Shown: positions 7,701 to 58,090 of the stretch, piece by piece
How positions within the stretch are numbered: the first letter of the stretch is position 1
Layout of the letters: every line of letters starts with the position of its first letter
NCBI GenBank assembly: GCA_016929645.1
Contig: JAFGIK010000028.1
Location: forward strand, 11,402-75,401
Direction of reading: 5' to 3'
Source: Candidatus Dojkabacteria bacterium
GTDB taxonomy: Bacteria; Patescibacteriota; Dojkabacteria; SC72; JAFGCJ01
Length of the DNA stretch: 64,000 bases
The notes under the pieces: generated by a model
The model's input: the letters and a program-made list of their open reading frames with translations, nothing else
What the model was told of the DNA's origin: nothing
Databases searched by the model: none
Position numbers and translations under genes: made by a program

Positions 7701-8624
7701 AAGCTTCGATCGCCTTGCAACTGAATCTGTAAGATTAATACTTTTCTGAATAGAGTCTCGAAGCAATTTAAGATCAATTCTGACCAACAACTCTCTTACT
7801 GCTTCAGCACCCATTTTGGCTGTAAAGAAGACATACTCTCGATCCTTCAAAAGGATAAACTCCTCTTCACTCAAAACTTCTCCGATAGCGATTTTTTCAA
7901 CAAGTTTTTTCAGGTCATCATACTCCTTTTCCAACTCCTCTTCTCTGTCAGCAAATTGCTTATGAAGCTTAGCTACTGTTTTTTTATTCTCATGCGTTAA
8001 TGTCTCGATTTGAAATTCAGATTTTGAATCAGATTTTTTCTGTATTTTTTTTATCTGACTTGAAAGTTCTTTCTCTTTCTCCTGCACCTCAACGTCTAAT
8101 TCTGATTGAAGTTCTTTTTTCTTCGTCTCAAGTTCAGAATCAATTGCAGGTAAAATCTCTTTCTTTTGATCTCCATCAACATCTGTAATTAAATACCTAG
8201 TATAATACACCACAGATAAAAGCTTCTTTTGTGAAATATCAAGAATTGTAGCAATCTTATTTGGAACGCTAAACGAATACCATACATGGGTAACAGGAAC
8301 ACAAAGTTTGATATGTCCCATTCGTTCACGTCGAACCTTGTTTGTAGTCACCTCTACACCACATTTGTCACAGATTATTCCTTTATATCGAACTTTTCTA
8401 TATTTTCCACAATAACATTCGTAATTTTTACTTGGACCAAAAATCTTTTCACACATTAATCCATCTGGCTCTGGTTTAAGTGTTCGATAATTGATAGTCT
8501 CTGCTTTTGTGATCTCTCCATGAGACCAAGAAAGAATTTGTTCAGGAGATGCTAATGTTACCTTTATAGCATCAAATGAATCGAACTTATTCTTCTTTTT
8601 CTTCTGGTTGTTGTTCGGCTCCAT
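4704..8624 (-). CDS. rpoC: DNA-directed RNA polymerase subunit beta-prime
   Basis: 1306 aa with the zinc-binding CxxC motifs, NADFDGD catalytic motif, bridge helix and trigger loop. It overlaps the rpoB stop by 38 nt. It carries a K/E-rich coiled-coil insertion (see findings). Confidence 0.95.
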
Positions 8625-11600
8625 CTGTATTATCAGCTTTGTTATAAATTAAATCGATATCAAGAGACAAGGCATTTAACTCCCTAATCAAAACTTTAAA
8701 TGATTCAGGAGTAGAAATTGTCTCAATTTTTTCTCCATGAATAATAGCTTTGTACGCGTCTGCCCTACCCTTCACATCATCAGACTTGATAGTTAACATT
8801 TCCTGAAGGACTGTTGGAACACCATGAGCTTCAAGCGCCCAAACTTCCATTTCTCCAAATCTTTGTCCGCCCATCTGGGCCTTACCACCAAGTGGCTGTT
8901 GAGTTACAAGTGTATATGGACCAGTTGATCTTGCATGAATCTTCGTGTCAGCAATATGTTTCAACTTTTGAATATATTTCGGTCCTACTTTTATCTTCTT
9001 CTTGAAAGGATTACCCGTCCTACCATCAAATAATTTCACACGTTCATCAGTATTAACACCTTTTGATTTAGCTTCATCATACAACCAATCAATTCTAAGA
9101 TTTTCAAAGTTTGGTAAACCGATCCTTATACCAAGATCCTTTGCAATCTTTGCTAAACGTACTTCGAGCAACTGACCAACGTTCATACGTTTAATCATAA
9201 TTGGATTGATAATAATATCAACAGGAGTTCCATCTTCCATAAATGGCATATCCTCTACTGGCAAAATTCCCGAAATTGTACCCTTATCTCCATGTCTACC
9301 AGCAAGTTTATCTCCAAAAGAGATCTTCTTCGTATCTGCAACCCATACACTTACTCTTTTAAGAACGCCTGATGGCAATTTATCCCCATTCTCTACATCC
9401 AGTACTTGAGTCTTTATTACTACACCGTGCTGACCATGTGGAACTTTCAAGGAATTATCTCTAACATCATGGGCTTGCTCTCCAAAAATTGCTCGAAGAA
9501 GTCTTTCCTCTGATGTCAATTCCTGTTCTCCTTTTGGAGCAATGACACCAACAAGGATATCCTGAGACCTGACACGTGACCCTTCTCGGACAATTCCTTT
9601 TTCATCAAGGTTTTTAAGTGCTCTTTCGCTTGCATTTGGAATATCATTTGTTAAAACTTCTGGACCAAGTTCAGTTTCCTGAATCTCATGGTCATATTTT
9701 TTAATATGAATAGAAGTTAGCATATCATCTTTTACTACACGTTCAGAAATCAAAAATCCATCTTCATAAACATACCCATCAAGAATCATATATGCACAGG
9801 TAAGATTTGTACCGAGGGCAAGTTCTCCATTTTGAATTCCAGGACCATCAACTATCAAATCACCTTTCTTTAACTTTTGGCCTGAATTAACCACAGGCTT
9901 CTGACTGAAACACGTTTCATGGTTAGTACCCATAAATGTTGTTAATTCATAGGATTTATCAGTTTTCTGTCCTTTATACCTAACAACAACTTTTTCTGCA
10001 TCAACATATGTGATTTCACCATCTTCTTCTGCATAGATTGACCAACCCGTCTGCTTAGCAATCTCATCCTCATAACCAGTACCAACAATTGATGCCTGAG
10101 TTTTAAGCAATGGAACTGCCTGCTTTTGCATATTAGAACCCATCAATCCTCTTGCGGGATCATCATTATGACCACAAGCAATAGCTGCTAAACTGACACT
10201 ACAAATCTGAGATGGAGTAACATCCATAAGTTGAACATCTTGTGCAGGTCTCAAAAAGAAGTGACCCTCTGAACGTACGGAAACAAGTTTATCAAGGATG
10301 TTACCATTTTCATCAAGATTTATAGTAGACATAGTAATAACAAAGGCGTCATCTTCAGAAGGAGCTACATAAATAATCTCTTCACTTCTAAATGAGACAA
10401 CATTTATTTCTTTAATATCTGTTATCCTAGAAACTTTTTCTGCAGTAGCTTCTGTAATCTTTTCAAATGCTTTAACAACGACCTTCTTGGACTTTGGATC
10501 TTTAATATCCTCTAATGGAATTCTATTCAACAATGACTTTTTATTATTTTTTACTTTGTTTAAAACCTTGATGTAAGGAGCTTCAATAAAACCATATTCA
10601 TTAATTCGAGCATATAACGCAAGATTAATAACAACACCAATTGGCTGACCTTCTGGCGTCATAACAGGACAAAATCTTGAATAATGTGAATGATGAACAT
10701 CACGAACTGAAAACGTCGCACGTTCCTTTGTAAGACCACCAGGACCAACTGCCGTAACCTCTCTCTTCTGAGAAAGCTCAGCCATAATATTGTCCTGATC
10801 CATAAACCTACACAGCTGACCAGTACCAAAGAAGCTATTTACAGCTGCAGCAATAGGCTTAGTACTTATTAACATACTTGGGGTAACATTTGTGTCTTCA
10901 CCATGCATACTCATCCTATCTCGAATATTCTTTTCCATCCTAAGTACACCGGAACGTACTTCATCAACAAGAAGTTCACCAACGCTTCTAATTCTTCTGT
11001 TTGCCAAATGATCTAAATCATCCGGAGATCTCTTACGATTATGAAGTAATATAATATTTCGAATTATCTGAACAAGATCTTCATTGTACAATCTGTAATG
11101 TTCAGGTTTCATTTCAAAATCAAGTCCTAATTTCTTATTCAATTGATAACGCCCTACTCTACCCAAATCAAATCGTCTTTTATTGAAAAAGAATCCTTTA
11201 ATGTATTTCTCCGCCGATTCGATAGATACAGACTCATCAGGTCTAATCTTATTATAAATATCAATAACAGCCTGTTCTTTATTATGAGTACTATCTCGCT
11301 CCAATGTAGCTTCGATTAAATCACGATCAAGACCTATTACATCCTTAAATAGCTCGCGAATCTCATCATCAGAAGAGTAACCAAGTGCTCGAAGAAGTGA
11401 CGTTAATAAAATCTTTGGTCGCTTATTAACCAATCTCAAAGTCATAACAAGATGTTTATTTACCTCAAAAACAAACCACGGGCCATTCATAGGCATAAGC
11501 CTTGCAGAGTATAGCTTGTTGGTAACTGTACTTGTCTTACTCTCTTCAAACAATACACCTTCTGCTCTTACAATTTGATGAACTGTAACCTTAGTAACAC

Positions 11601-11991
11601 CATTGATAACAAAATAACCGTTTTTGGTCATAATAGGTACATCAGCTACAAAGATGGATTGTTCCTTAATTTCACCAGTTCTCTCACTTTTCAATCTCAC
11701 CGTAATATGTAACGGTGCATCGTATGAGAGATTTTTATCAATAGATTCACGTACAGTTCTATTTGGTTTCCCAAACTCAAAATCACCAAACTCTAATGTC
11801 CACATTTTTCCAAGAGTATCCTTAACTGGATTTATCTCGTTAAAAAGAGCTCTTACACCTTCAGATTTAAACCAATCAAAAGATCGATGCTGAGCTTCGA
11901 TGAAATTTGGCAGCGGCAATATTCTATCTGAAGTTCCAAGAACAAATCTGCCTGAAGTATTCTTGCGAGGAATAAATTCTCGAGTATCCAT
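8587..11991 (-). CDS. rpoB: DNA-directed RNA polymerase subunit beta
   Basis: 1134 aa with conserved beta-subunit blocks (e.g. GDKLAGRHGNKG-like, fork and clamp regions). It lies upstream of rpoC. Confidence 0.95.
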   Translation of the reverse strand: MDTREFIPRKNTSGRFVLGTSDRILPLPNFIEAQHRSFDWFKSEGVRALFNEINPVKDTLGKMWTLEFGDFEFGKPNRTVRESIDKNLSYDAPLHITVRLKSERTGEIKEQSIFVADVPIMTKNGYFVINGVTKVTVHQIVRAEGVLFEESKTSTVTNKLYSARLMPMNGPWFVFEVNKHLVMTLRLVNKRPKILLTSLLRALGYSSDDEIRELFKDVIGLDRDLIEATLERDSTHNKEQAVIDIYNKIRPDESVSIESAEKYIKGFFFNKRRFDLGRVGRYQLNKKLGLDFEMKPEHYRLYNEDLVQIIRNIILLHNRKRSPDDLDHLANRRIRSVGELLVDEVRSGVLRMEKNIRDRMSMHGEDTNVTPSMLISTKPIAAAVNSFFGTGQLCRFMDQDNIMAELSQKREVTAVGPGGLTKERATFSVRDVHHSHYSRFCPVMTPEGQPIGVVINLALYARINEYGFIEAPYIKVLNKVKNNKKSLLNRIPLEDIKDPKSKKVVVKAFEKITEATAEKVSRITDIKEINVVSFRSEEIIYVAPSEDDAFVITMSTINLDENGNILDKLVSVRSEGHFFLRPAQDVQLMDVTPSQICSVSLAAIACGHNDDPARGLMGSNMQKQAVPLLKTQASIVGTGYEDEIAKQTGWSIYAEEDGEITYVDAEKVVVRYKGQKTDKSYELTTFMGTNHETCFSQKPVVNSGQKLKKGDLIVDGPGIQNGELALGTNLTCAYMILDGYVYEDGFLISERVVKDDMLTSIHIKKYDHEIQETELGPEVLTNDIPNASERALKNLDEKGIVREGSRVRSQDILVGVIAPKGEQELTSEERLLRAIFGEQAHDVRDNSLKVPHGQHGVVIKTQVLDVENGDKLPSGVLKRVSVWVADTKKISFGDKLAGRHGDKGTISGILPVEDMPFMEDGTPVDIIINPIMIKRMNVGQLLEVRLAKIAKDLGIRIGLPNFENLRIDWLYDEAKSKGVNTDERVKLFDGRTGNPFKKKIKVGPKYIQKLKHIADTKIHARSTGPYTLVTQQPLGGKAQMGGQRFGEMEVWALEAHGVPTVLQEMLTIKSDDVKGRADAYKAIIHGEKIETISTPESFKVLIRELNALSLDIDLIYNKADNTDGAEQQPEEKEE

Positions 11992-12431
11992 ATATTTTAG
12001 TCCTATTATTAATAATTATATAAACAAAAGAAGACCACATAGGTCTTCCTAAAAACTTTAATAAACTTTGAAAAGACTAATATCCTTCAAAAACATTATG
12101 AGAAACTAATTTTTATTGAAAATCCCGGTGATAGTAACATGTAAACGATCTTATGTCAAACCTGATGTTTGATATTAATCGCCAACCTGCAGCAAAAACA
12201 GTAATCTTTATACTAGACATCTACAAATTCTTATTACATTTTCTTACAATTATAGACAAAATGCAATACTGAAATACAAATGGATGAAACAGGTTATTTC
12301 CAATTACAGCATTTTCCAATTAATAACATATTTCATCTGTTTATTTTTATATTGTAAAAAGACATCACTTCTAATACAATAATTATTGATCACAAAAACA
12401 ATATATTAATGCAAATTACCAAAAAATTATC

Positions 12432-32525: not shown

Positions 32526-32947
32526 GGGGACGCATTTGGTTTCGACAGTTGTTCGCGTTCTAACGCTCAAGTCAGAGTAAAGCTCTGTAAAAACTTACAA
32601 ATAGACAGCAATAGTCTAGTACAACGTGTTCAGAAAGCTGCAAGTAACATTGTAGCTGGTTTTAATGCAGCATTAGCTGGATTAAATACTATGAATGCGG
32701 TAGTTGCATAACTAGCGACTACAGACCTGGATGGCTTTTTCTTGATAGAGCCTCCAACGTCTTTCACCTATCAAGATATATAGGAAAGGTAAACGTGATA
32801 AGCCTGACCTTCGAACTCTAAAATTATCACTACTGCATTTTGTTTTGTCAGCTTTATAAAATGCAGGAAATACTAAACTGACAAAACTTGTTTAAGGCGT
32901 TATTACAAAGCAATTGGACGTGGGTTCGACTCCCGCCGTCTCCACCA
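32526..32947 (+). ncRNA. ssrA: tmRNA (SsrA)
   Basis: 5' GGGGACGCATTTGGTTTCGAC ... 3' GGACGTGGGTTCGACTCCCGCCGTCTCCACCA. Acceptor stem with a G3:U70 wobble, T-arm GGTTCGACTCC and a terminal CCA. The internal tag-like frame ...AALAGLNTMNAVVA ends at TAA; the resume codon is uncertain. Confidence 0.9.
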
Positions 32948-48156: not shown

Positions 48157-49887
48157 CTATAAGCGCCAATCCACAGGCTCATCTAGTTCTCGGATGAGCA
48201 CGAAATATGAAGATTTTGAATCCAGAGCAAAATCGTTACCATAATAAGTTTGATTATCATATATCAATCCTTTGTATCGACCATCCACATAAGCCATAAC
48301 AGACTTTGCTCCAATTGAATTATTATTTAGTTCATCAAGTAATTCTTTTGCCATAATACCATCATTAAAAACAGAATGGTCCCAACTCGTTGAATCACTA
48401 CCTCCGAGAGAAATCAGATTCCAGCCGACATTTAAATGTATAGCATCACTTTGTTCCAACTCATTTACAGACATAGAGATATCCGCCCCAGTAGAATTAA
48501 CAATATATCCTGTATTTGATTCCAAATCAAAATTATTTCCATAAAACTCTCCATTTGACTTCTTTTCATAGCTGATCCAACGTCCATTGTCATATGTGGC
48601 AATAGACCTGAAGTTTCCGTTTGATGAAGTAATATATTCTGCAATACTTTCAGCTTTTCGACCATCAAGATCATATGGAAAAGAAACAAAAGTTGATCCT
48701 GGATCTAGTTCGTAACTAACATCTATCTTCGTTTCTTCATTGTCATCATCAGACAATGGATATTTGTAATCTTCAAAATTTCCTTGTACCTCAAAAATTT
48801 TCTGCTGGTTTTCTACAAAATTATTATCAGCATCAATTAATGTTCTTTTGAATTCGATGTTATCATTAGATACGGTCGCTATAATAACCTCATCATAAAG
48901 ACCCGGAGCACCAACATTTTCTGTAGATACACCATACATTGACCATAATTGAACACCATTATAAACCTCATCTCCACCTTTATGACCATGTCCCATAAAT
49001 ACGGCTTTCAGATTACTATCACAGCCTAGTTCATCAATAATATACTTTGGGAAAAGAGTTCCATCAGAGGAAGAAGTTTCACGGTGATGAATAAACATGA
49101 TTGATGCTGAAGCTTTGTTTGAATCACACACCTCGCTTCTTATCCAATTCATATCTTCTGTATTTCCTGGAAAATTTTGAAAAAAATTATAACCAAGTAT
49201 GATGAAATTTATATTTCCCCTAACAAAGGAATATGTGTGATCAGTACTATCTGCTGTACAAAATCCATTGGTAGCAATTTCAGGATTAAATGGTGCAGGA
49301 AAATCTGTTTTAGTCTGAAGCTCTACAGTTTCAAAATTAGCAGAATAATGATCTCGAGGGCTTTCTGCTTCAGAGCCCCAATAGTTAAAAGTGCCATTAC
49401 AAATGCCATTCTCATAGCTATCCAGCATTACGTATTTTTTGTTGGGATATTCAGTTCCTTCAACTCGCTCTACGTCATGATTGCCGAGAGCCACATGAAT
49501 TTCCATAAGCTCATCTTTATCAGTTTGTGTAATATATTCCTTTGATTGCAAGGCAAGTAATCCTTTTGTAGGCTGATATCTGTAATCTCCAACATGAACA
49601 TCGCCCATCTTGTGGGCCCAGGTAATATCACCAACATGAATTAGCATTTTAGAATCGTTTTCAGCGACTTGTTGAAACAGAGTGTCATATGACTGAGTCT
49701 CAGTATTATGGGTATCTGTTATTATCGAAAACGACCAAGGTGTAAACTGCTCTGTTGTAGCACTACTTCTGGGATCCATTGTCGTTGACTGTTGTGTCAA
49801 AGCTACGACTATAAAAAATAGCGTTAAACTAACACTAAAGATCCCAATTATAAAAAAATTATTGCTGTTGTTTTTGCGAACGGGCAT
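48157..49887 (-). CDS. Secreted calcineurin-like metallophosphoesterase
   Basis: Signal/TM N-terminus and GDITWAH...GNHD...GHGH phosphoesterase motifs. Confidence 0.6.
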   Translation of the reverse strand: MPVRKNNSNNFFIIGIFSVSLTLFFIVVALTQQSTTMDPRSSATTEQFTPWSFSIITDTHNTETQSYDTLFQQVAENDSKMLIHVGDITWAHKMGDVHVGDYRYQPTKGLLALQSKEYITQTDKDELMEIHVALGNHDVERVEGTEYPNKKYVMLDSYENGICNGTFNYWGSEAESPRDHYSANFETVELQTKTDFPAPFNPEIATNGFCTADSTDHTYSFVRGNINFIILGYNFFQNFPGNTEDMNWIRSEVCDSNKASASIMFIHHRETSSSDGTLFPKYIIDELGCDSNLKAVFMGHGHKGGDEVYNGVQLWSMYGVSTENVGAPGLYDEVIIATVSNDNIEFKRTLIDADNNFVENQQKIFEVQGNFEDYKYPLSDDDNEETKIDVSYELDPGSTFVSFPYDLDGRKAESIAEYITSSNGNFRSIATYDNGRWISYEKKSNGEFYGNNFDLESNTGYIVNSTGADISMSVNELEQSDAIHLNVGWNLISLGGSDSTSWDHSVFNDGIMAKELLDELNNNSIGAKSVMAYVDGRYKGLIYDNQTYYGNDFALDSKSSYFVLIRELDEPVDWRL

Positions 49888-50112
49888 ATTACTATATTAC
49901 ATTATCGACAGAGTTTTTACTATATAGGCTACGGGATTGTAAATTTTAAATGTACCTTCTTTGGTAAATAATTTGCTTAAGAAATTTATCTATTTTGAAT
50001 GTTATCCTAAACAACAAATTAGCGGGTCCTGAAGCTAATTGGGTTAAAAACCCTGGGATGGCAACCCAATAAATATCTTCTTCTAGAAATCATCCTAAGC
50101 AAGCCTAACATT

Positions 50113-50141
50113 GACTTCAGATTACCTTATAGCTAAAATCC
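50113..50141 (+). promoter_or_regulatory. Putative sigma-70 promoter TTGACT-N17-TAAAAT for the metG leader
   Basis: Spacing and hexamers read directly. Confidence 0.3.
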
Positions 50142-50177
50142 TAATAATTTATGAAAACATTGAACAACTCAAAATTA

Positions 50178-50277
50178 ATGATGGTAATGATGATGCAAAA
50201 CCTCTAGGAGGCATGTGATTCATATACTTTCATTAAAATCGCATACCTCCGAAAAGGAGGTTTTTTGTTTTTTTATG
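50178..50277 (+). promoter_or_regulatory. Met-codon-rich leader ORF (ATG ATG GTA ATG ATG ATG CAA AAC CTC TAG) plus terminator/antiterminator upstream of metG
   Basis: GGAGGCAT (50207-50214) can pair with ATACCTCC (50243-50250). Alternatively ACCTCC-GAAAA-GGAGGT (50245-50261) forms a hairpin followed by TTTTTTGTTTTTTT. Confidence 0.45.
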
Positions 50278-50309
50278 CTATATGAATTAAACTCTTTAGT
50301 GAATATTTA

Positions 50310-53129
50310 ATGAAAACACAAATTTTCGAAAAATTAAAATCGCAGCACAAAAAGATTTTTATTGGAGTCTCATGGCCATACGCAAATGGCGATATACACC
50401 TTGGACACCTTGCTGGTCAAAATGTCGTGTGCGATGTTTTTGCCCGTTATCACAGGCTTATTGGAAACGAAGTCCTAATGGTTTCAGGAAGCGATTGTCA
50501 CGGTGCACCTGTTGTTTTTGCCGCAGAAGAAAAAGGCATTAAACCAGAGGAATTTGCAGAAAAATCTCATGAAAATATTTTAAAAACATTTAAGAGACTT
50601 GGATTTTTATATGAAAATTACACTTCAACAACAACAGAAAACCATAAAAAAGTTGCACAAAATGTTTTTTTAGTATTAAAAGAGAAAGGTTATCTTGTTG
50701 AAAAAGAATCTCAACAATACTTCGATCCCAAGGTCAATAGGTTTTTGCCAGACAGATATGTCAGAGGAACTTGCCCAAACTGCAAAGCAGACAATGCCCG
50801 CGGTGATGAATGTCCTGAGTGTGGAGCCTATCTTGATCCAGAGGAGCTAATCAACCCTCGTAGCACATTATCTGATGCCACCCCAATAATCAAACAGACG
50901 AATCATTTTTATCTGGACTTGCGAAAAGCAGCACCAAAACTCAACGAATGGTTGAAAGATAAGAATTACTGGCGAAAATGGGTACTGGAAGTTTCTCGAG
51001 GATGGATTAAAAATGGATTAAAACCTCGGGCTATCACCCGTGACATGGACTACGGAATCAAAGTTCCAGTTGACGGATGGGAAGGAAAAGTCATATACGT
51101 ATGGTTTGAGGCAGTTATCGGATATTTATCTGCAGCAATTGAATGGGCCGCCAAGCAAGGAAACCCCGGCAAATGGGAAGAATTCTGGAAGAATTCAGAA
51201 TGTAAGCATTATTACTTTATTGCAGGCGGAAATGTACCGTTTCACACAATAATATGGCCTGCCGAAATTTTCGCTTACAACGAAAAGTACGAAGATAAGG
51301 CGATATTCGAGAAATATAAACTTCCGGGGGAAACAACACAGGAAAATCTTCAACTTCCTTATGACGTACCTGCAAATAATATGCTGACATTCCGTGGCAA
51401 AAAGATGTCAAAAGGTGACAAAACAGGAATAACCTTACAGAAATTACTTGATGAATACAAATTTAACCCTGATACATTAAGGTATTTTTTTGTAAAAAAT
51501 GCGCCGGAAGATACAAACCGAGACTATATATCAAAAGATCTTGTCGACTCAAATAACAACGAATTGGTGGCAAATATCGGCAATTTTATTAATCGAGTTG
51601 TTTCTTTTACGAATTCGAAGTTTGAAGGAATCGTGCCGGAAGGGCATGTTAATAACGAGACCGAGACTCAGCTTAATGAAACTTTCATTAAAACTGGAAA
51701 ATATATCGAAGAATGCGAATTTGTTAAAGCAATTGAACAAATTCTGGCACTTGGACACTACGCTAATAAGTATTTTAACGATCAAAAACCTTGGGAAAAA
51801 ATAAAAACCGAGCAAGAAAATGCAAGTAACACCATTTACAACTCTATCCAGATTGTGTCTGCATTTGGAACCCTGCTGAAGCCTTTTTTACCGTTCACAG
51901 CAGAAAAAATTCAAAAAATGTTAAATTTTAATGAATTGTATGATCCTAACAAAGAACTTGAATCTAATGGCAAAATATCAAAGTTTGTAAACGTATGGAA
52001 ATTTAATGAAATCCCAGTGGGTCAAAAAATTAACAAACCTGAGATTTTATTTGAAAAGCTCGATTACAGAGAGGAATTCCAAAAGACTGACAACCCTGAA
52101 CCAGAAATCATCATAAGCACTGAAACATCGGGCTTAGATTTCTCAAAGATTGATCCAAACGTTGTTATCGCAAAAATTAAAAGCTCACAGCCACATCCGA
52201 AAGACGCTAAATTAAAAATTCATGAAGTTGAGTCTCGGTCTCCAAGCAGAGTCGTCTGTGCCGCCCAAAACGTAAACCCAGGCGATATCGTCCCGCTCGC
52301 CCTTCCAGGAAGCAAAGTACTTTCGCTTTCAGGGAAAGGCAAACATAAGATCGAAAGTGCCACCATAAAAGGTGAAAAATCAGAGGGAATGCTTTGCGCC
52401 CAAGTAGAACTTGGCATAGGTCAAGACACCAAAAACATATATATCCTTCCAAAATCATTCGAAAAACATATTGGAAAACCGTTATCATCAATCCGTTCAA
52501 TTGGTCTCAACATAGATGAAACCCTAAAAGATGAACCTGTCCTTTGGACTGTCGTTAGGGACATTAACATCAAGAGGAATCGATCGAATAAGTTGAACAA
52601 ATGGATCCATGATCGTGAGCTGGAGGTTGAACAGATAACCAAAAATAAGAAATGGAAAGAAAATGAAATTTATTCTCATTTTCGAGAATTACACAGCAAA
52701 TATGGAGCAGGGGATACTCCAGGAGCAGCAGAGGAGTTGATATCTTTCGTTAATAAAAACCATGCATTGCCAAACATTAACAACTTCGTCGATTTATACA
52801 ACACTTTTTCGGCAACAACAGGAATATCAATAGGAGCTCATGACATAGAAAGGATTGATGGTACGCCACAGCTAAAAATCCTTGAAAAAGATCAAGAATT
52901 CAATCATGTGACAACAAATACAAAAGATGTTGCCAAAAAAGGCGAATACGCATTTACTGATGATAAAGGAGTGATGTGCAGACTGGACATAAAACAGTCG
53001 AACCATACAAATGTCACACAGAAAACTAAAAAAATCCTTATTATTTTCCAAGGAACTAAGACTCTGACAATCAAAGTATTGAAAGAAAAATTAAAGGAAT
53101 TCGAAAAACTAGTTAAAGAACTTCTTTAG
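50310..53129 (+). CDS. metG: Methionyl-tRNA synthetase fused to a C-terminal tRNA_bind OB-fold and a PheT-like B3/4 domain (939 aa)
   Basis: HLGH and KMSKG class I motifs, Zn knuckle CPNCK...CPECG, tRNA_bind (PGDIVPLALPGSKV...SEGMLCAQVELGI), then VDLYNTFSATTGISIGAHDIERIDG...AFTDDKGVMCRLDI resembling the PheT B3/4 block [25 protein letters not shown]...IADHNKALAMGGI. Confidence 0.9.
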   Translation: MKTQIFEKLKSQHKKIFIGVSWPYANGDIHLGHLAGQNVVCDVFARYHRLIGNEVLMVSGSDCHGAPVVFAAEEKGIKPEEFAEKSHENILKTFKRLGFLYENYTSTTTENHKKVAQNVFLVLKEKGYLVEKESQQYFDPKVNRFLPDRYVRGTCPNCKADNARGDECPECGAYLDPEELINPRSTLSDATPIIKQTNHFYLDLRKAAPKLNEWLKDKNYWRKWVLEVSRGWIKNGLKPRAITRDMDYGIKVPVDGWEGKVIYVWFEAVIGYLSAAIEWAAKQGNPGKWEEFWKNSECKHYYFIAGGNVPFHTIIWPAEIFAYNEKYEDKAIFEKYKLPGETTQENLQLPYDVPANNMLTFRGKKMSKGDKTGITLQKLLDEYKFNPDTLRYFFVKNAPEDTNRDYISKDLVDSNNNELVANIGNFINRVVSFTNSKFEGIVPEGHVNNETETQLNETFIKTGKYIEECEFVKAIEQILALGHYANKYFNDQKPWEKIKTEQENASNTIYNSIQIVSAFGTLLKPFLPFTAEKIQKMLNFNELYDPNKELESNGKISKFVNVWKFNEIPVGQKINKPEILFEKLDYREEFQKTDNPEPEIIISTETSGLDFSKIDPNVVIAKIKSSQPHPKDAKLKIHEVESRSPSRVVCAAQNVNPGDIVPLALPGSKVLSLSGKGKHKIESATIKGEKSEGMLCAQVELGIGQDTKNIYILPKSFEKHIGKPLSSIRSIGLNIDETLKDEPVLWTVVRDINIKRNRSNKLNKWIHDRELEVEQITKNKKWKENEIYSHFRELHSKYGAGDTPGAAEELISFVNKNHALPNINNFVDLYNTFSATTGISIGAHDIERIDGTPQLKILEKDQEFNHVTTNTKDVAKKGEYAFTDDKGVMCRLDIKQSNHTNVTQKTKKILIIFQGTKTLTIKVLKEKLKEFEKLVKELL
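51655..51700. repeat. Possible degenerate partial copy inside metG (GACCGAGACTCAGCTT + AATGAAACTTTCATTAAAA)
   Basis: A 16-nt exact match to the copy A core plus an arm-like palindrome. Encodes NETETQLNETFIK in frame. Confidence 0.3.
52209..52239. repeat. Partial copy of the palindromic element inside metG (AAAAATTCATGAAGTTGAGTCTCGGTCT)
   Basis: Matches the reverse complement of copy A (AAAATTTAATGAAGCTGAGTCTCGGTCT) at about 27 of 30 positions. Encodes HEVESRS in frame. Confidence 0.45.
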
Positions 53130-55342: not shown

Positions 55343-57757
55343 CTATTCAACCTCAACTGGCCATTTTTCCATCATCAAGAGTCCTGATTTATGACCATCT
55401 TCTAACAACCCCATACCCTTGAGATTCTGCCAAATATATTCTGTTACAAACGGTGCAAAAGGATGAATCAATTTTAATGAAGTAATAATAATCGTCAACA
55501 AACGGGACATAAATTTCGCCTTATTTTCAGGATCTTCATCAATAAGCTTTTTCGTTTCTTCGATCCATTGGTCACAAACGGTGTGCCAGAAGAATTCCCT
55601 TAATTCTTCAACAGCAAGATTAAATCTATATTTATTGATGTAATCTGTAATCCTTGTTGCCGTAGCATAAGTTTGCTTGAGCCACTCGTCATCAGCATTC
55701 TTTAGATTCATTAAATTTTCATTAATTTCACCATCAAGTTGTTTAATTTCATTTTCATTAAACAAATCCTCCAACTTCATCATGACAAAGCGACTGGCAT
55801 TCCATATCTTATTTACAAAATTTCGATTACCCATCAACTTATCATCCATGATTGGAGTACTTTGACCAGGAAGTGTTGCAGTGTAGTACCACAGACGGAG
55901 TGCATCAGCACCATATTTCTTTAACACATCAGCAGGCTCAACTCCATTTCCTTTGGATTTAGACATTTTCTGACCATCTGCCGCCAAAATCATGCCATGC
56001 AAGTAAACTGTATGAAAAGGAGTTTTCCCAGTACGATACATAGACATCATCATCATTCTGGCAACCCAGAAAAACAAAATGTCACGAGCAGTTTCCATTA
56101 CATCTGTTGGGAAAAATTTCTTAAAATCTTCTCCTTCAGGTCCACCCATAGTTGAGAAAGTCCACTGACCTGATGAATACCACGTGTCAAAAACATCTTC
56201 TTCTTGAACAATATCAACATCAGCTGCAGATTTTCCACATTTTTCGCACTTTTCAGGCTTATCTATAGCAGCCATGGCATTACCGCAACCGTTTACTTTT
56301 TCCCCAGTTTCCTTTTCGAAATCCTCGATAGACTTGTCAGGATTGCTTAACTTCCAGTCAAAGAACTTCTTAGAACCACAGTACCAAACTGGAATTTGAT
56401 GTCCCCACCAAAGTTGACGAGAAATACACCATGGCTCGAGTTTTTCAAACCACTGGCGCAGCACCCGATGCTGATTTTCAGGTAGCACTACAGTTTCCCT
56501 TTTATCCAAGGCTTCAATGCATTTTTCTGCCAAGGATTTTATGTTTACAAACCATTGTTTTGACATAATTTGTTCAATGTCATTCTTGCAACGCTCACAA
56601 ACAATAACCTCGTGCGGAAAATCCTCAACTTTAACCAACAATCCCTCATTTTTAAGATCTTCAATAACCGCATCACGACACTCTTTTACCGTCATACCCT
56701 GGTATTTCTCAGGTGCATTGTCATTCATTTTTCCTTCTTCATTGATCACATTTATGACTTCAAGATTGTGCTCTTTGCCAATGCCAAAGTCGATAGATGA
56801 ATGAGCAGGTGTTACTTTCAAAGCGCCTGTACCAAAATCCTTATCAACTTCTCTTGCAGCAATAACTGGAATCTCCCTGTCTGTTAATGGCAATTTAACT
56901 TTTTTACCAACAAGATCTTTGTATCGATCATCATCAGTAGAAACTGCTACTGCAGTGTCTCCAAGCATAGTTTCAGGTCGAGTTGTTGCTACAGTGACAA
57001 ACTTAGTCGGGTCATCAGCATACGGATATTTGATATATGCAAAGATGCCTTTTTTCTCAATATGATCTGTATCAATATTGGCAAGTGCTGTCTTACAGTG
57101 GGTACACTGGTTAATGATGTACTCGTCTCGATAAACCATACCTTCATTAAACATTTTAATGAAAGTTTCAAAAATAACTTTATTTAGGCCTTCGTCAAGA
57201 GTAAATTTTTCACGTGACCAATCGGAAGATAGACCAATTCTTTTTTCCTGCTGCCTTGCATGATCAGCATTTTTTGTACAAAATTCATAGGCTTTATGAT
57301 AAAACTTTTCTCTACCGATTTCCCATTTATCAAGGCCTCTTTCTGCCAACACTTTTGTAAAAACGGCTTCCGTTTGTATCCCTGCATGATCTTTACCAGG
57401 TAAAAGTAGGGTAGGCCGACCATTCATTCGATTGTAACGACCCATACAATCCTGAAAAGAATAACCACACATATGGCCAATATGAAGCTCTCCGTTTGCA
57501 TTTGGAGGTGGCTGTGTTATGACAAAAGGCTTTTTCGATTTTACTTCTTTCTTTGTCGAACTTTCTGTCTTTGATGACTCTTCATGAAGATCAGAAATCA
57601 TTTTGTCTGGATTAAAATAACCCGAATCTTCCCATAATTTATACATCTGCATTTCATCATCAGGCGTATATTTTTTGGGAATTTGAAACGAATCACTGGT
57701 AGAAGATTTCTCTCCAGCATTATTTTCTTTCTCAGCTTTTATTTCTTTGCCAGCCAT
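55343..57757 (-). CDS. valS: Valyl-tRNA synthetase
   Basis: PPNANGELHIGH, GKDHAGIQTE, WCISRQLWWGHQIP and KMSKSKGN. 804 aa, lacking the usual C-terminal coiled coil. Confidence 0.75.
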   Translation of the reverse strand: MAGKEIKAEKENNAGEKSSTSDSFQIPKKYTPDDEMQMYKLWEDSGYFNPDKMISDLHEESSKTESSTKKEVKSKKPFVITQPPPNANGELHIGHMCGYSFQDCMGRYNRMNGRPTLLLPGKDHAGIQTEAVFTKVLAERGLDKWEIGREKFYHKAYEFCTKNADHARQQEKRIGLSSDWSREKFTLDEGLNKVIFETFIKMFNEGMVYRDEYIINQCTHCKTALANIDTDHIEKKGIFAYIKYPYADDPTKFVTVATTRPETMLGDTAVAVSTDDDRYKDLVGKKVKLPLTDREIPVIAAREVDKDFGTGALKVTPAHSSIDFGIGKEHNLEVINVINEEGKMNDNAPEKYQGMTVKECRDAVIEDLKNEGLLVKVEDFPHEVIVCERCKNDIEQIMSKQWFVNIKSLAEKCIEALDKRETVVLPENQHRVLRQWFEKLEPWCISRQLWWGHQIPVWYCGSKKFFDWKLSNPDKSIEDFEKETGEKVNGCGNAMAAIDKPEKCEKCGKSAADVDIVQEEDVFDTWYSSGQWTFSTMGGPEGEDFKKFFPTDVMETARDILFFWVARMMMMSMYRTGKTPFHTVYLHGMILAADGQKMSKSKGNGVEPADVLKKYGADALRLWYYTATLPGQSTPIMDDKLMGNRNFVNKIWNASRFVMMKLEDLFNENEIKQLDGEINENLMNLKNADDEWLKQTYATATRITDYINKYRFNLAVEELREFFWHTVCDQWIEETKKLIDEDPENKAKFMSRLLTIIITSLKLIHPFAPFVTEYIWQNLKGMGLLEDGHKSGLLMMEKWPVEVE

Positions 57758-58090
57758 ATGCTTTATTTAAAAATTTATATCAAAAAAAATCCGTCCTCAT
57801 CAGATTAATAAAAATTAACCTGAAAAGGACGGATTTCTATATATAATTCTCCGTGGTACCACCTTTTTTTCTTCAAAAGTTACCTTTATGAAGCTCTTTT
57901 CCATACTATCTCAATGAAGCATTAATATGGGACTGAATCACCAGCTCAGCAACTGCCAGAGTCTATTCGCTTTATTAGAAATTTGGCTAACAAAGTTTTC
58001 TTTCTGAACCTCCAGAGTGACTAGCTCTGTACATTCGGTTTATTAAATTAAGAAAATTTTAACAAAAAATAAAGGAATCTTCAATGTTAA
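57758..58090 (-). promoter_or_regulatory. T-box riboswitch leader for valS
   Basis: Minus-strand AAAAAAAGGTGGTACCACGGAGAAT matches the T-box consensus AGGGUGGNACCGCGG (forward 57851-57863). It is followed by a terminator AAATCCGTCCT...AGGACGGATTT plus T8 (forward 57787-57836). A candidate GUC specifier lies in UAGUCAC upstream. Confidence 0.55.

Follow-up and report, generated by a model that had tools for sequence, protein, structure and literature searches.

The metG gene (50310..53129, forward strand; 939 aa), which encodes methionyl-tRNA synthetase (MetRS) in the 64,000-nt stretch of Candidatus Dojkabacteria DNA analysed here (in its full length referred to as the window), is preceded by a leader that probably functions as a four-segment, ribosome-mediated (leader-peptide) transcription attenuator and that would tune metG to the supply of charged elongator Met-tRNA. 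This reading is supported by sequence, folding and comparative evidence: at the sequence level, the leader has every hallmark of the leader-peptide attenuator class, and no curated leader family is homologous to it. The host is an uncultured bacterium of the Candidate Phyla Radiation (CPR; Patescibacteria, WS6) whose genome has a G+C content of ~35%, and the window MetRS shares 100% identity with a Candidatus Dojkabacteria bacterium protein that bears the name methionine--tRNA ligase.

The leader lies in a divergent intergenic region, a 420-bp gap between metG and a metallophosphoesterase gene (Pfam; 48157-49887) that is encoded on the opposite strand; since this upstream gene is on the other strand, the intrinsic terminator found at 50245-50274 cannot belong to it. 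The leader region contains no tRNA genes. An earlier note on this DNA had pointed to a promoter-like TTGACT-N17-TAAAAT upstream of metG, to a 9-codon AUG-rich open reading frame (ORF), to a GGAGG/CCTCC pairing and to the use of the same CCTCC as the 5' arm of an ACCTCC-GAAAA-GGAGGT terminator followed by T6GT7. The promoter is present (P1, 50111-50139) and, with 10 of 12 matches, is the best in the region; the terminator with its shared arm is likewise where it had been placed. The ORF is also there (ATGATGGTAATGATGATGCAAAACCTCTAG, 50178-50207: ATG ATG GTA ATG ATG ATG CAA AAC CTC TAG), with the amendment that its start more likely lies at 50151, which gives 18 codons instead of 9. The pairing of GGAGGCAT (50207-50214) with ATACCTCC (50243-50250; complementary with one C/A mismatch) stands too, as part of a longer helix of 13 bp that reaches 50220/50237.

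The ATG at 50151 is the first start codon past the -10 box and shares its frame with the AUG run, from which no stop codon separates it. As transcription from sigma-70 promoters commonly begins ~7 nt past the -10 box, and as this ATG lies 11 nt past it, the leader mRNA (judged by its predicted transcription start) is most likely leaderless or provided with a 5' untranslated region of at most ~4 nt. The start of the leader ORF is, by the same sequence features, most likely 50151 and not 50178, which removes the objection that a sensor ORF cannot open with its own regulatory codons. The absence of a Shine-Dalgarno (SD) motif in front of it is no argument against translation, since an SD-like motif at -6 to -23 was found at only 2 of the 43 window ORFs of at least 150 aa; metG itself also lacks one, as is usual for this host. 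A role of the leader GGAGG motifs as ribosome-binding sites was ruled out by this scarcity of SD-like motifs and by a relative (L098) in which the segments have jointly become GGCGGG/CCGCC: the motifs are structural. As a separate observation, a -10-like box lies 5-9 nt 5' of the start codon at a few window genes (e.g. 19429, 35872 and 2626), which suggests that these, too, may be expressed from leaderless mRNAs.

The pattern ATGATGNNNATGATGATG occurs once in the 64-kb window (0.03 occurrences expected from shuffles), and at least 5 internal Met codons are found in only 3 of the 1313 window ORFs of 10-45 codons, the other two being located outside the metG intergenic region. With a Met frequency of 2.0% (12 long ORFs), 17 internal codons would include at least 5 Met with a binomial probability of 1.7e-5. 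The window alone leaves some room for chance; the conservation of the layout in at least 6 further Dojkabacteria loci removes that room.

These further metG loci, which were drawn from a genome scan, a metagenome scan and look-ups of the closest MetRS proteins, encode MetRS 49-59% identical to that of the window; together with the window, L001, L091, L094 (identical to L095), L096, L098 and L099 constitute the set of seven loci referred to throughout. In all 8 leaders (L092 included) a promoter (TTGACA/TTGAAA/TTGTGA-17/18-TAAAAT/TATAAT, 10-12 of 12 matches) occupies the same position, and an ATG or GTG lies 8-11 nt past its -10 hexamer, in frame with the Met run and without an intervening stop; in 7 of the 8 it is the first start codon past the -10 box. 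Start codon and Met run are 27, 30 or 36 nt apart, with length differences that are multiples of 3. The putative leader peptides (window MKTLNNSKLMMVMMMQNL; relatives MKTFNYSINMSMNMMMPAYGGV, MKILNQPKKMMSMMMHISKGRL, MKLINQPQKTVEMMAMMMQSSLGSL, MTIKVTTNSMMMSMMMHLQGEDVG, MTHSHRSQAMQVAMRILPAEG and, with a GTG start, SNSNTSSQAMSMMMSSPHRG) contain 5 internal Met codons in the window, 4-6 in five relatives and 2 in L001, and the run is kept as MMxMMM, MxMMM or MMMxMMM in L091, L096, L094, L098 and L099. Within it, the AUGs are constant and the non-Met triplet changes as a whole codon (GUA, UCU, GCC, UCC, AAC, AGC); outside it, the peptides are barely conserved, as would be expected for a sensor ORF. 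Furthermore, the leader always adjoins metG in the same orientation, despite upstream neighbours that differ by locus (ABC-2 permease, AF_1845-like protein, metallophosphoesterase, unknowns).

In the window, the region 50146-50275 folds with z = -3.3 relative to shuffles, and three mutually exclusive helices can be drawn in it: an anti-antiterminator (1:2), in which the AUG run (50175-50197) pairs with the CAU-rich 50216-50236 around the small hairpin H1; an antiterminator (2:3; 50207-50220/50237-50250, 13 bp with the one C/A mismatch, z = -3.95, none of 300 interior shuffles as stable); and the terminator (3:4). The features and their positions are collected in Table 1.

Table 1. Features of the metG leader in the window (numbering from the first nucleotide of the window)
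Feature	Position	Strand	Basis and remarks
Promoter P1: -35 TTGACT (50111-50116), 17-nt spacer, -10 TAAAAT (50134-50139)	50111..50139	+	10/12 matches, best in region
Putative leader-peptide ORF MKTLNNSKLMMVMMMQNL + stop	50151..50207	+	18 codons; ATG 11 nt past -10 box; without SD
Candidate regulatory codons AUG AUG GUA AUG AUG AUG (codons 10-15)	50178..50195	+	Sequence; kept as MMxMMM/MxMMM/MMMxMMM in relatives
Segment 1: AUG run + CCUC arm (50201-50204); 1:2 partner 50208-50236	50175..50204	+	Folding, -17.6 kcal/mol with segment-3 core unpaired
Hairpin H1, CCUC-UAG-GAGG	50201..50211	+	Folding, -2.4 kcal/mol; counterpart in all 7 loci
Segment 2 GGAGGCAUGUGAUU, antiterminator 5' strand; stop UAG (50205-50207) abuts	50207..50220	+	Folding
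CAU-rich stretch UUCAUAUACUUUCAUUAA: partner of AUG run in 1:2, antiterminator loop in 2:3	50219..50236	+	Folding
Segment 3 AAUCGCAUACCUCC, antiterminator 3' strand; last 6 nt are terminator 5' arm	50237..50250	+	Folding, shuffles
Intrinsic terminator ACCUCC-GAAAA-GGAGGU (50245-50261) + U6GU7 (50261-50274)	50245..50274	+	6 pairs, 4 of them G-C; -9.5 kcal/mol
Possible weak promoter P2: TTGTTT (50265-50270), 17-nt spacer, TAAACT (50288-50293), 16 nt 5' of metG ATG	50265..50293	+	Sequence; speculative

As the spacer regions of the relatives do not align, the comparison was based on per-locus folding, shuffles and geometry. H1, a long 2:3 helix and a terminator (3:4) with a U-run are present in each of the seven loci; in all of them segment 2 consists of the H1 3' arm plus downstream sequence, and segment 3 leads into and includes the terminator 5' arm. 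The segments co-vary: the H1 arms read CCUC/GAGG, CCUGCC/GGCGGG, AUCUCC/GGAGAU, CUCC/GGAG, CCUCC/GGAGG (two loci) and GCCCCC/GGGGGU, with all four segments of L098 shifted from the GGAGG/CCUCC to the GGCGGG/CC(U/C)GCC type, and with L094 (H1 GGGGGU/GCCCCC) retaining the pairing with ACUACCUCCC. The extension of the antiterminator differs in sequence by lineage, yet it beats interior dinucleotide-shuffled controls in 7 of 7 loci (z-scores -3.95, -2.42, -3.41, -4.38, -2.17, -3.03 and -1.80; 0, 6, 2, 1, 10, 4 and 18 of 300 shuffles at least as stable); these loci are not all independent, L091 and L096 being close relatives, and represent at least 4 lineages with unrelated spacer sequences. For the 1:2 state, AAAUCAACC-like codons 4-7 pair with GGUUGAUUU in L091, L096 and L099. 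When the energies of 1:2 and 2:3 were compared on RNA ending at the terminator loop (i.e. before segment 4), they differed by 0.2-2.2 kcal/mol in 5 of the 7 loci (1.5 in the window), by 4.2 kcal/mol in L001 and by 10.3 kcal/mol in L098; once segment 4 was included, the terminator conformation came out ahead by 8-17 kcal/mol. Such an energy balance is what would be expected from a kinetic switch, in which the first helix to form stays in place unless it is displaced by a ribosome.

With the first base of the last AUG as reference point, the 5' arm of H1 is found at +3 to +12 nt in the seven loci, segment 2 starts at +12 to +17 and the U-run follows after 69-78 nt; the stop codon begins at -3 to +13 nt when counted from the segment 2 start, always within the antiterminator 5' strand. 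Given that the footprint of a bacterial ribosome extends ~12-13 nt beyond the first base of the codon in its A site, this spacing implies that a ribosome waiting on the Met run would cover segment 1 and leave segment 2 free; one positioned at the stop codon would cover segment 2, because the stop is within the antiterminator 5' strand. Folds of the window constrained by such a footprint gave the antiterminator when the A site was placed on the first or the last AUG, and the terminator when it was placed on the stop. In L091, L096 and L099, with the last AUG in the A site, the constrained folds still drew a long-range helix around the masked stretch, which we regard as sterically unrealistic. 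The claims of the earlier note that concern function are supported by these comparisons: the trp/his/pheST-type architecture it had recognised comprises four segments and three exclusive helices (the 1:2 anti-antiterminator being our addition), segment 2 would stay beyond the reach of a stalled ribosome and be overlapped by one at the stop in 7 of 7 loci (starting 12-17 nt past the last AUG, with the stop at or inside it), the 2:3 helix (-12.1 kcal/mol) that it had set against the terminator hairpin (-9.5 kcal/mol) is the stronger of the two, and the Met-codon mini-ORF with its terminator, the conservation of which it had left to be checked, is kept before metG in the relatives.

The mechanism that we propose on these grounds would run as follows. 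Transcription from P1 would begin at, or a few nt before, the AUG at 50151, and a ribosome would initiate on the (near-)leaderless 18-codon ORF and trail the polymerase. If Met-tRNA(Met) were scarce, the ribosome would stall with one of the five AUGs (50178-50195) in its A site, covering segment 1 (the AUG run and CCUC), breaking 1:2 and stopping short of segment 2, which could then pair with segment 3, consume the terminator 5' arm and permit read-through into metG. If Met-tRNA were plentiful, the ribosome would reach the UAG (50205-50207) and sit on segment 2, and with this segment masked the 3:4 hairpin (ACCUCC/GGAGGU and the U-run) would form and transcription would stop at ~50262-50274. 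With no ribosome on the leader, 1:2 would pair first and the 3:4 terminator would form.

Beyond Dojkabacteria, we scanned 100 metG upstream regions (~75 of them from loci with MetRS 37-43% identical to that of the window), with their reverse complements as control. Stop-free 8-codon windows with at least 3 in-frame ATG codons were found in 25 of 100 forward versus 4 of 100 reverse-complement regions, and those with at least 4 in 11 versus 0. The matches from outside Dojkabacteria fall into two sequence groups that are unrelated to the Dojkabacteria leader: an 'MMM' group (MTIDAVGVMMMCCAPWRGGSEAP, MTPRALIMMMPAVPPPHRSEAC, ..NGMMMSRPHLQFNAR, MMMRRMTWMPGCEVPR and others) and a second one with a conserved GGCUGUCC...GGACAGCC-U7 terminator and Met-rich ORFs of 18-44 aa. 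In both groups a terminator follows the ORF and metG (with an SD) lies 50-200 nt further downstream; for the representative of each, the closest named MetRS is from Anaerolineae/Anaerolineales (Chloroflexota). No obvious antiterminator was seen in the minimum-free-energy folds of the Anaerolineae 'MMM' leaders, and what we claim for them is the association of ORF and terminator. The repeated occurrence of a Met-run ORF plus terminator before metG in unrelated sequences nevertheless appears to provide independent support for the codon-to-gene logic. We are inclined to believe, with less assurance than for the metG leader of the window, that Met-codon leader-peptide attenuation is a widespread and unrecognised control of MetRS in Dojkabacteria and Anaerolineae (in at least 2 unrelated forms in the latter) and that it has been repeatedly invented or remodelled. 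Met-run mini-ORFs with terminators located 150-300 nt 5' of metG were noted in L026-L028, L017, L034, L042, L043, L055, L076 and L082, and one Anaerolineae family encodes hydrophobic Met-rich peptides of 37-44 aa with a conserved SPPL motif, which could be real small proteins.

Several observations weigh against the attenuator reading or restrict its reach. Translation of the leader ORF must itself be initiated with fMet-tRNA, likewise a MetRS product, and a severe shortage of Met-tRNA would for that reason reduce initiation and favour termination. Leaderless initiation of the ORF is plausible, and the offsets of -10-like hexamers before the window genes give no clear leaderless signal in such AT-rich DNA. 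H1 of the window is weak, and the antiterminator is favoured even without a ribosome (by the 1.5 kcal/mol given above, and by the 10.3 kcal/mol in L098), so that basal read-through could be high. P2 may supply basal expression, in which case metG would depend only partly on read-through: CTG(C/T)TAAACT recurs at its position in L001, L092, L094 and L097 (16-19 nt 5' of the metG ATG), P2 itself scoring below the threshold of the promoter scan. A MAFFT alignment of the seven leaders found a structural register only at the Met run and the terminator, the spacers being unalignable. As for distribution, the internal Met codons of L001 number only two and are separated; the copy in L092/L093 is degenerate (a Met-Met ORF and a weak stem without U-run); L097 has lost the leader; and no leader is present in the Dojkabacteria loci L011-L014, L100 and L102-L105, which have only a TGnTATAAT-type promoter 15-35 nt 5' of the start codon, at the P2 position. 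The leader has a patchy occurrence, and MetRS cores give a star-like neighbour-joining tree in which no leader-bearing clade is resolved.

With regard to other explanations, we consider it unlikely that P1, the mini-ORF and the terminator form an independent small transcription unit (a micropeptide or small RNA gene), with metG driven by its own P2 and free of read-through control. CTG(C/T)TAAACT and a TTG inside the U-run could make a promoter between the terminator and metG, leader-free Dojkabacteria have TGnTATAAT in the same place, and attenuated leader RNA elsewhere can act in trans (rnTrpL/peTrpL, as described in PMC6614838 and PMC7298713). Such a unit would nonetheless have no use for the statistically supported antiterminator that overlaps the terminator in 7 of 7 loci (a plain terminator needs none), nor does it account for a stop codon that is always on segment 2, for a peptide unconserved outside the Met run, for the constant adjacency to and co-orientation with metG while the upstream neighbours change, or for the recurrence of unrelated Met-run ORFs before Chloroflexota metG. 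Still less likely, in our estimation, is a ribosome-dependent attenuator that reports general translation capacity, its Met codons being incidental or serving as extra start sites. Leaderless initiation on repeated AUGs could indeed offer several points of ribosome entry, and L001 works, if at all, with two Met codons only; against this, the regulated gene is always metG and the enriched codon always AUG (in two phyla and at least 3 unrelated leader sequence families), and such a match of codon to gene is the hallmark of amino-acid-specific attenuators.

A translation-independent RNA switch that binds tRNA(Met) in the manner of a T-box, S-adenosylmethionine (SAM) or Met, or MetRS itself (through mimicry of the anticodon arm), the AUG run being an RNA motif, seems to us more improbable again. 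It could draw on the fact that leuS of this genome has a T-box-like leader, on the complementarity of the AUG run to the CAU anticodon and on the anticodon-loop-like UUCAUAU held in the antiterminator loop of the window. The AUGs, however, always share a single frame, which opens at a 5'-proximal start codon and closes at a stop whose position is fixed with respect to segment 2; the triplet that interrupts the run changes as an entire codon, and the loop CAU is not conserved. Nor did the searches favour such a switch. In 49850-50400 the T-box model (RF00230) was without a match up to E = 10, and Stem I, a T-box sequence of the GGUGGUACC type and a bulged antiterminator are all missing from the metG leader; as the leuS leader of the same window, used as a positive control, matches RF00230 (E = 7e-7), the search is able to detect a divergent T-box in this genome. 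For SAM/Met riboswitches (S-box and others) there was no Rfam match in the region or in 8 related loci. An anticodon mimic for MetRS of the E. coli thrS operator type was rejected on the grounds that CAU is missing from the L091 and L096 loops; moreover, the metG leader element is situated 49-215 nt 5' of the metG start codon and closes with a terminator, in contrast to a thrS-type site near the translation start. Among the Rfam leader families (Phe_, Trp_, His_, Leu_ and Thr_leader), the best score was for Phe_leader (16 bits versus a gathering score of 55, E = 6.4). At gathering threshold, the whole window matched only transfer-messenger RNA (tmRNA), and the 8 related loci gave no T-box, SAM or leader-family match. 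Finally, a chance arrangement without function has almost nothing left to recommend it: AT-rich DNA is rich in -10-like hexamers and short ORFs (hence the 3 of 1313 with at least 5 internal Met codons), but the whole layout is kept in 7 loci whose MetRS are 49-59% identical and whose spacers are unalignable, and the 11 versus 0 regions with at least 4 ATG per 8-codon window point the same way, so that the comparative data leave this explanation effectively refuted.

The T-box-like leader of leuS (55343-57757, minus strand) lies within 57780-58045; its RF00230 match (57822-58045, 37.1 bits, E = 7e-7) covers the full-length model and stays below the gathering score (93). The leader includes GGUGGUACCACGG as well as a terminator AUCCGUCCU...AGGACGGAU-U8, and the same genome would appear to use direct tRNA sensing for leuS and a leader peptide for metG. 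A further candidate element is found before rpoB (8587-11991, minus strand), where the upstream region 12028-12160 has a promoter-like TTGACA-17-TACTAT site and, ~80 nt past it, a strong terminator (AGGAAGACC-TATGT-GGTCTTCTT plus T-run, 12050-12028) that is 37 nt 5' of the rpoB ATG, with TATATAAT between terminator and ATG; this may be an attenuator before rpoBC, recalling the E. coli rplL-rpoB attenuator. The tmRNA gene of the window is located at 32526-32947 (plus strand; Rfam 96.9 bits, ARAGORN tag peptide ASNIVAGFNAALAGLNTMNAVVA), and a tmRNA (139-560) is also found 5' of metG in L097. At the position of the lost leader, L097 has (1750-1960) a T-rich imperfect repeat (GTTCTGTTTATTCTC-like) that makes up a 40-codon Phe/Leu-rich frame, followed by CCCATAATGGG-CGTTTTAT. 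An 11-codon ORF of the window at 50275-50310 (MLYELNSLVNI), the TAA of which overlaps the metG ATG (TAATG), was considered as a case of translational coupling and dropped, as it is not conserved in the relatives; L096 has ATGAAAAAATAATG at the matching position. In L006 (Pelagibacteraceae) a 12-codon frame with ATG GGT ATG ATG ATG (2115-2132), ~880 nt 5' of the metG match, is probably unrelated to metG regulation. The window MetRS carries C-terminal tRNA_bind (PF01588) and B3_4 (PF03483) domains (window ORFs, Pfam), the latter of the type present in the PheRS beta subunit, and the C-terminal architecture of MetRS varies among Dojkabacteria (forms of ~580, 710, 810 and 940 aa).

If the attenuator reading holds, no ribosome-mediated attenuator would have been described in the CPR before the metG leader (within the literature we found), and this leader would imply a tight coupling of transcription and translation in these minimal cells. 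AUG is a seemingly awkward codon for sensing, since it doubles as the start signal and the enzyme under control also charges the initiator tRNA that reads it; in the CPR form, Met-tRNA would be needed both to start and to pass the sensor. As the host probably imports methionine (judging from what is generally known of CPR metabolism), a conserved Met sensor would show how such probable importers adjust their charging capacity. The switch would furthermore offer a sequence-level handle on coupling and leaderless translation in CPR organisms that cannot be cultured. With an element that is missing from Rfam and a codon-to-gene logic that recurs in Anaerolineae with other sequences, metG leaders would make a useful case of convergent or rapidly remodelled riboregulation and a new motif for annotation.

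Leader-peptide attenuators are textbook knowledge for Trp, His, Phe, Leu, Thr and Ile/Val and for the synthetase operon pheST, and in the classical model exclusive 1:2, 2:3 and 3:4 helices (3:4 being the intrinsic terminator) are combined with a stop codon placed for the masking of segment 2. The Met run of the Dojkabacteria leaders, at codons 10-16, resembles in its placement the Trp codons at positions 10 and 11 of trpL. With the trp, his, thr and leu attenuators and E. coli pheST (pheM) the metG leader shares the four segments, the exclusive helices and the placement of the stop for the masking of segment 2, and with pheST also the control of an aminoacyl-tRNA synthetase (aaRS); it differs from pheST in that the regulatory codon AUG doubles as the start codon, in the lack of an SD, in an ORF that begins 8-11 nt past the -10 box, in its CPR host and in the absence of any sequence similarity. 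T-box leaders (of Firmicutes metS/metG and, in the window, of leuS) follow the same logic, by which low tRNA charging leads to an antiterminator and to more synthetase; a T-box, however, binds uncharged tRNA directly and without translation, whereas the metG leader has no Stem I, T-box sequence or Rfam match.

Among published systems, pheST of the gamma-proteobacteria is the example of an aaRS attenuator, attenuators of trpS and leuS have been predicted in Streptomyces, and no conserved RNA regulatory structure was found upstream of the methionine operons of Actinobacteria (PMC1262725); a His leader has been reported before hisS paralogues in Bacillus (PMC2965389). These Streptomyces and Bacillus leaders are likewise cases of aaRS attenuation outside Proteobacteria that were found by comparative genomics, and they differ in their amino acids and phyla, neither of the two papers containing a methionine case. 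In Deinococcus deserti, 14 leader peptides, including leaderless ones before cysS and other genes, have been proposed to act in transcription attenuation (PMC4007540, accessible text); like the metG leader, they are short ORFs that start where the transcript starts, abound in the cognate amino acid and precede an aaRS gene, and they differ in belonging to another phylum, in the example given there (Cys/cysS) and in that this text presents no analysis of alternative structures. In mycobacteria, pausing on the codon run of leaderless polycysteine short ORFs remodels the downstream RNA and raises downstream expression (10.1101/834739), so that these involve Cys and control of translation, whereas the metG leader involves Met, an intrinsic terminator and an SD-less host. 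A methionine leader peptide or an attenuation of metG was not found in the searchable literature, which mostly excludes subscription journals, and the D. deserti list of 14 may hold one. Taken together, what would be new in the metG leader is its amino-acid specificity (Met), its phylum (CPR) and its leaderless, SD-less initiation, and what is known is the kind of mechanism proposed for it, the trp/pheST type.

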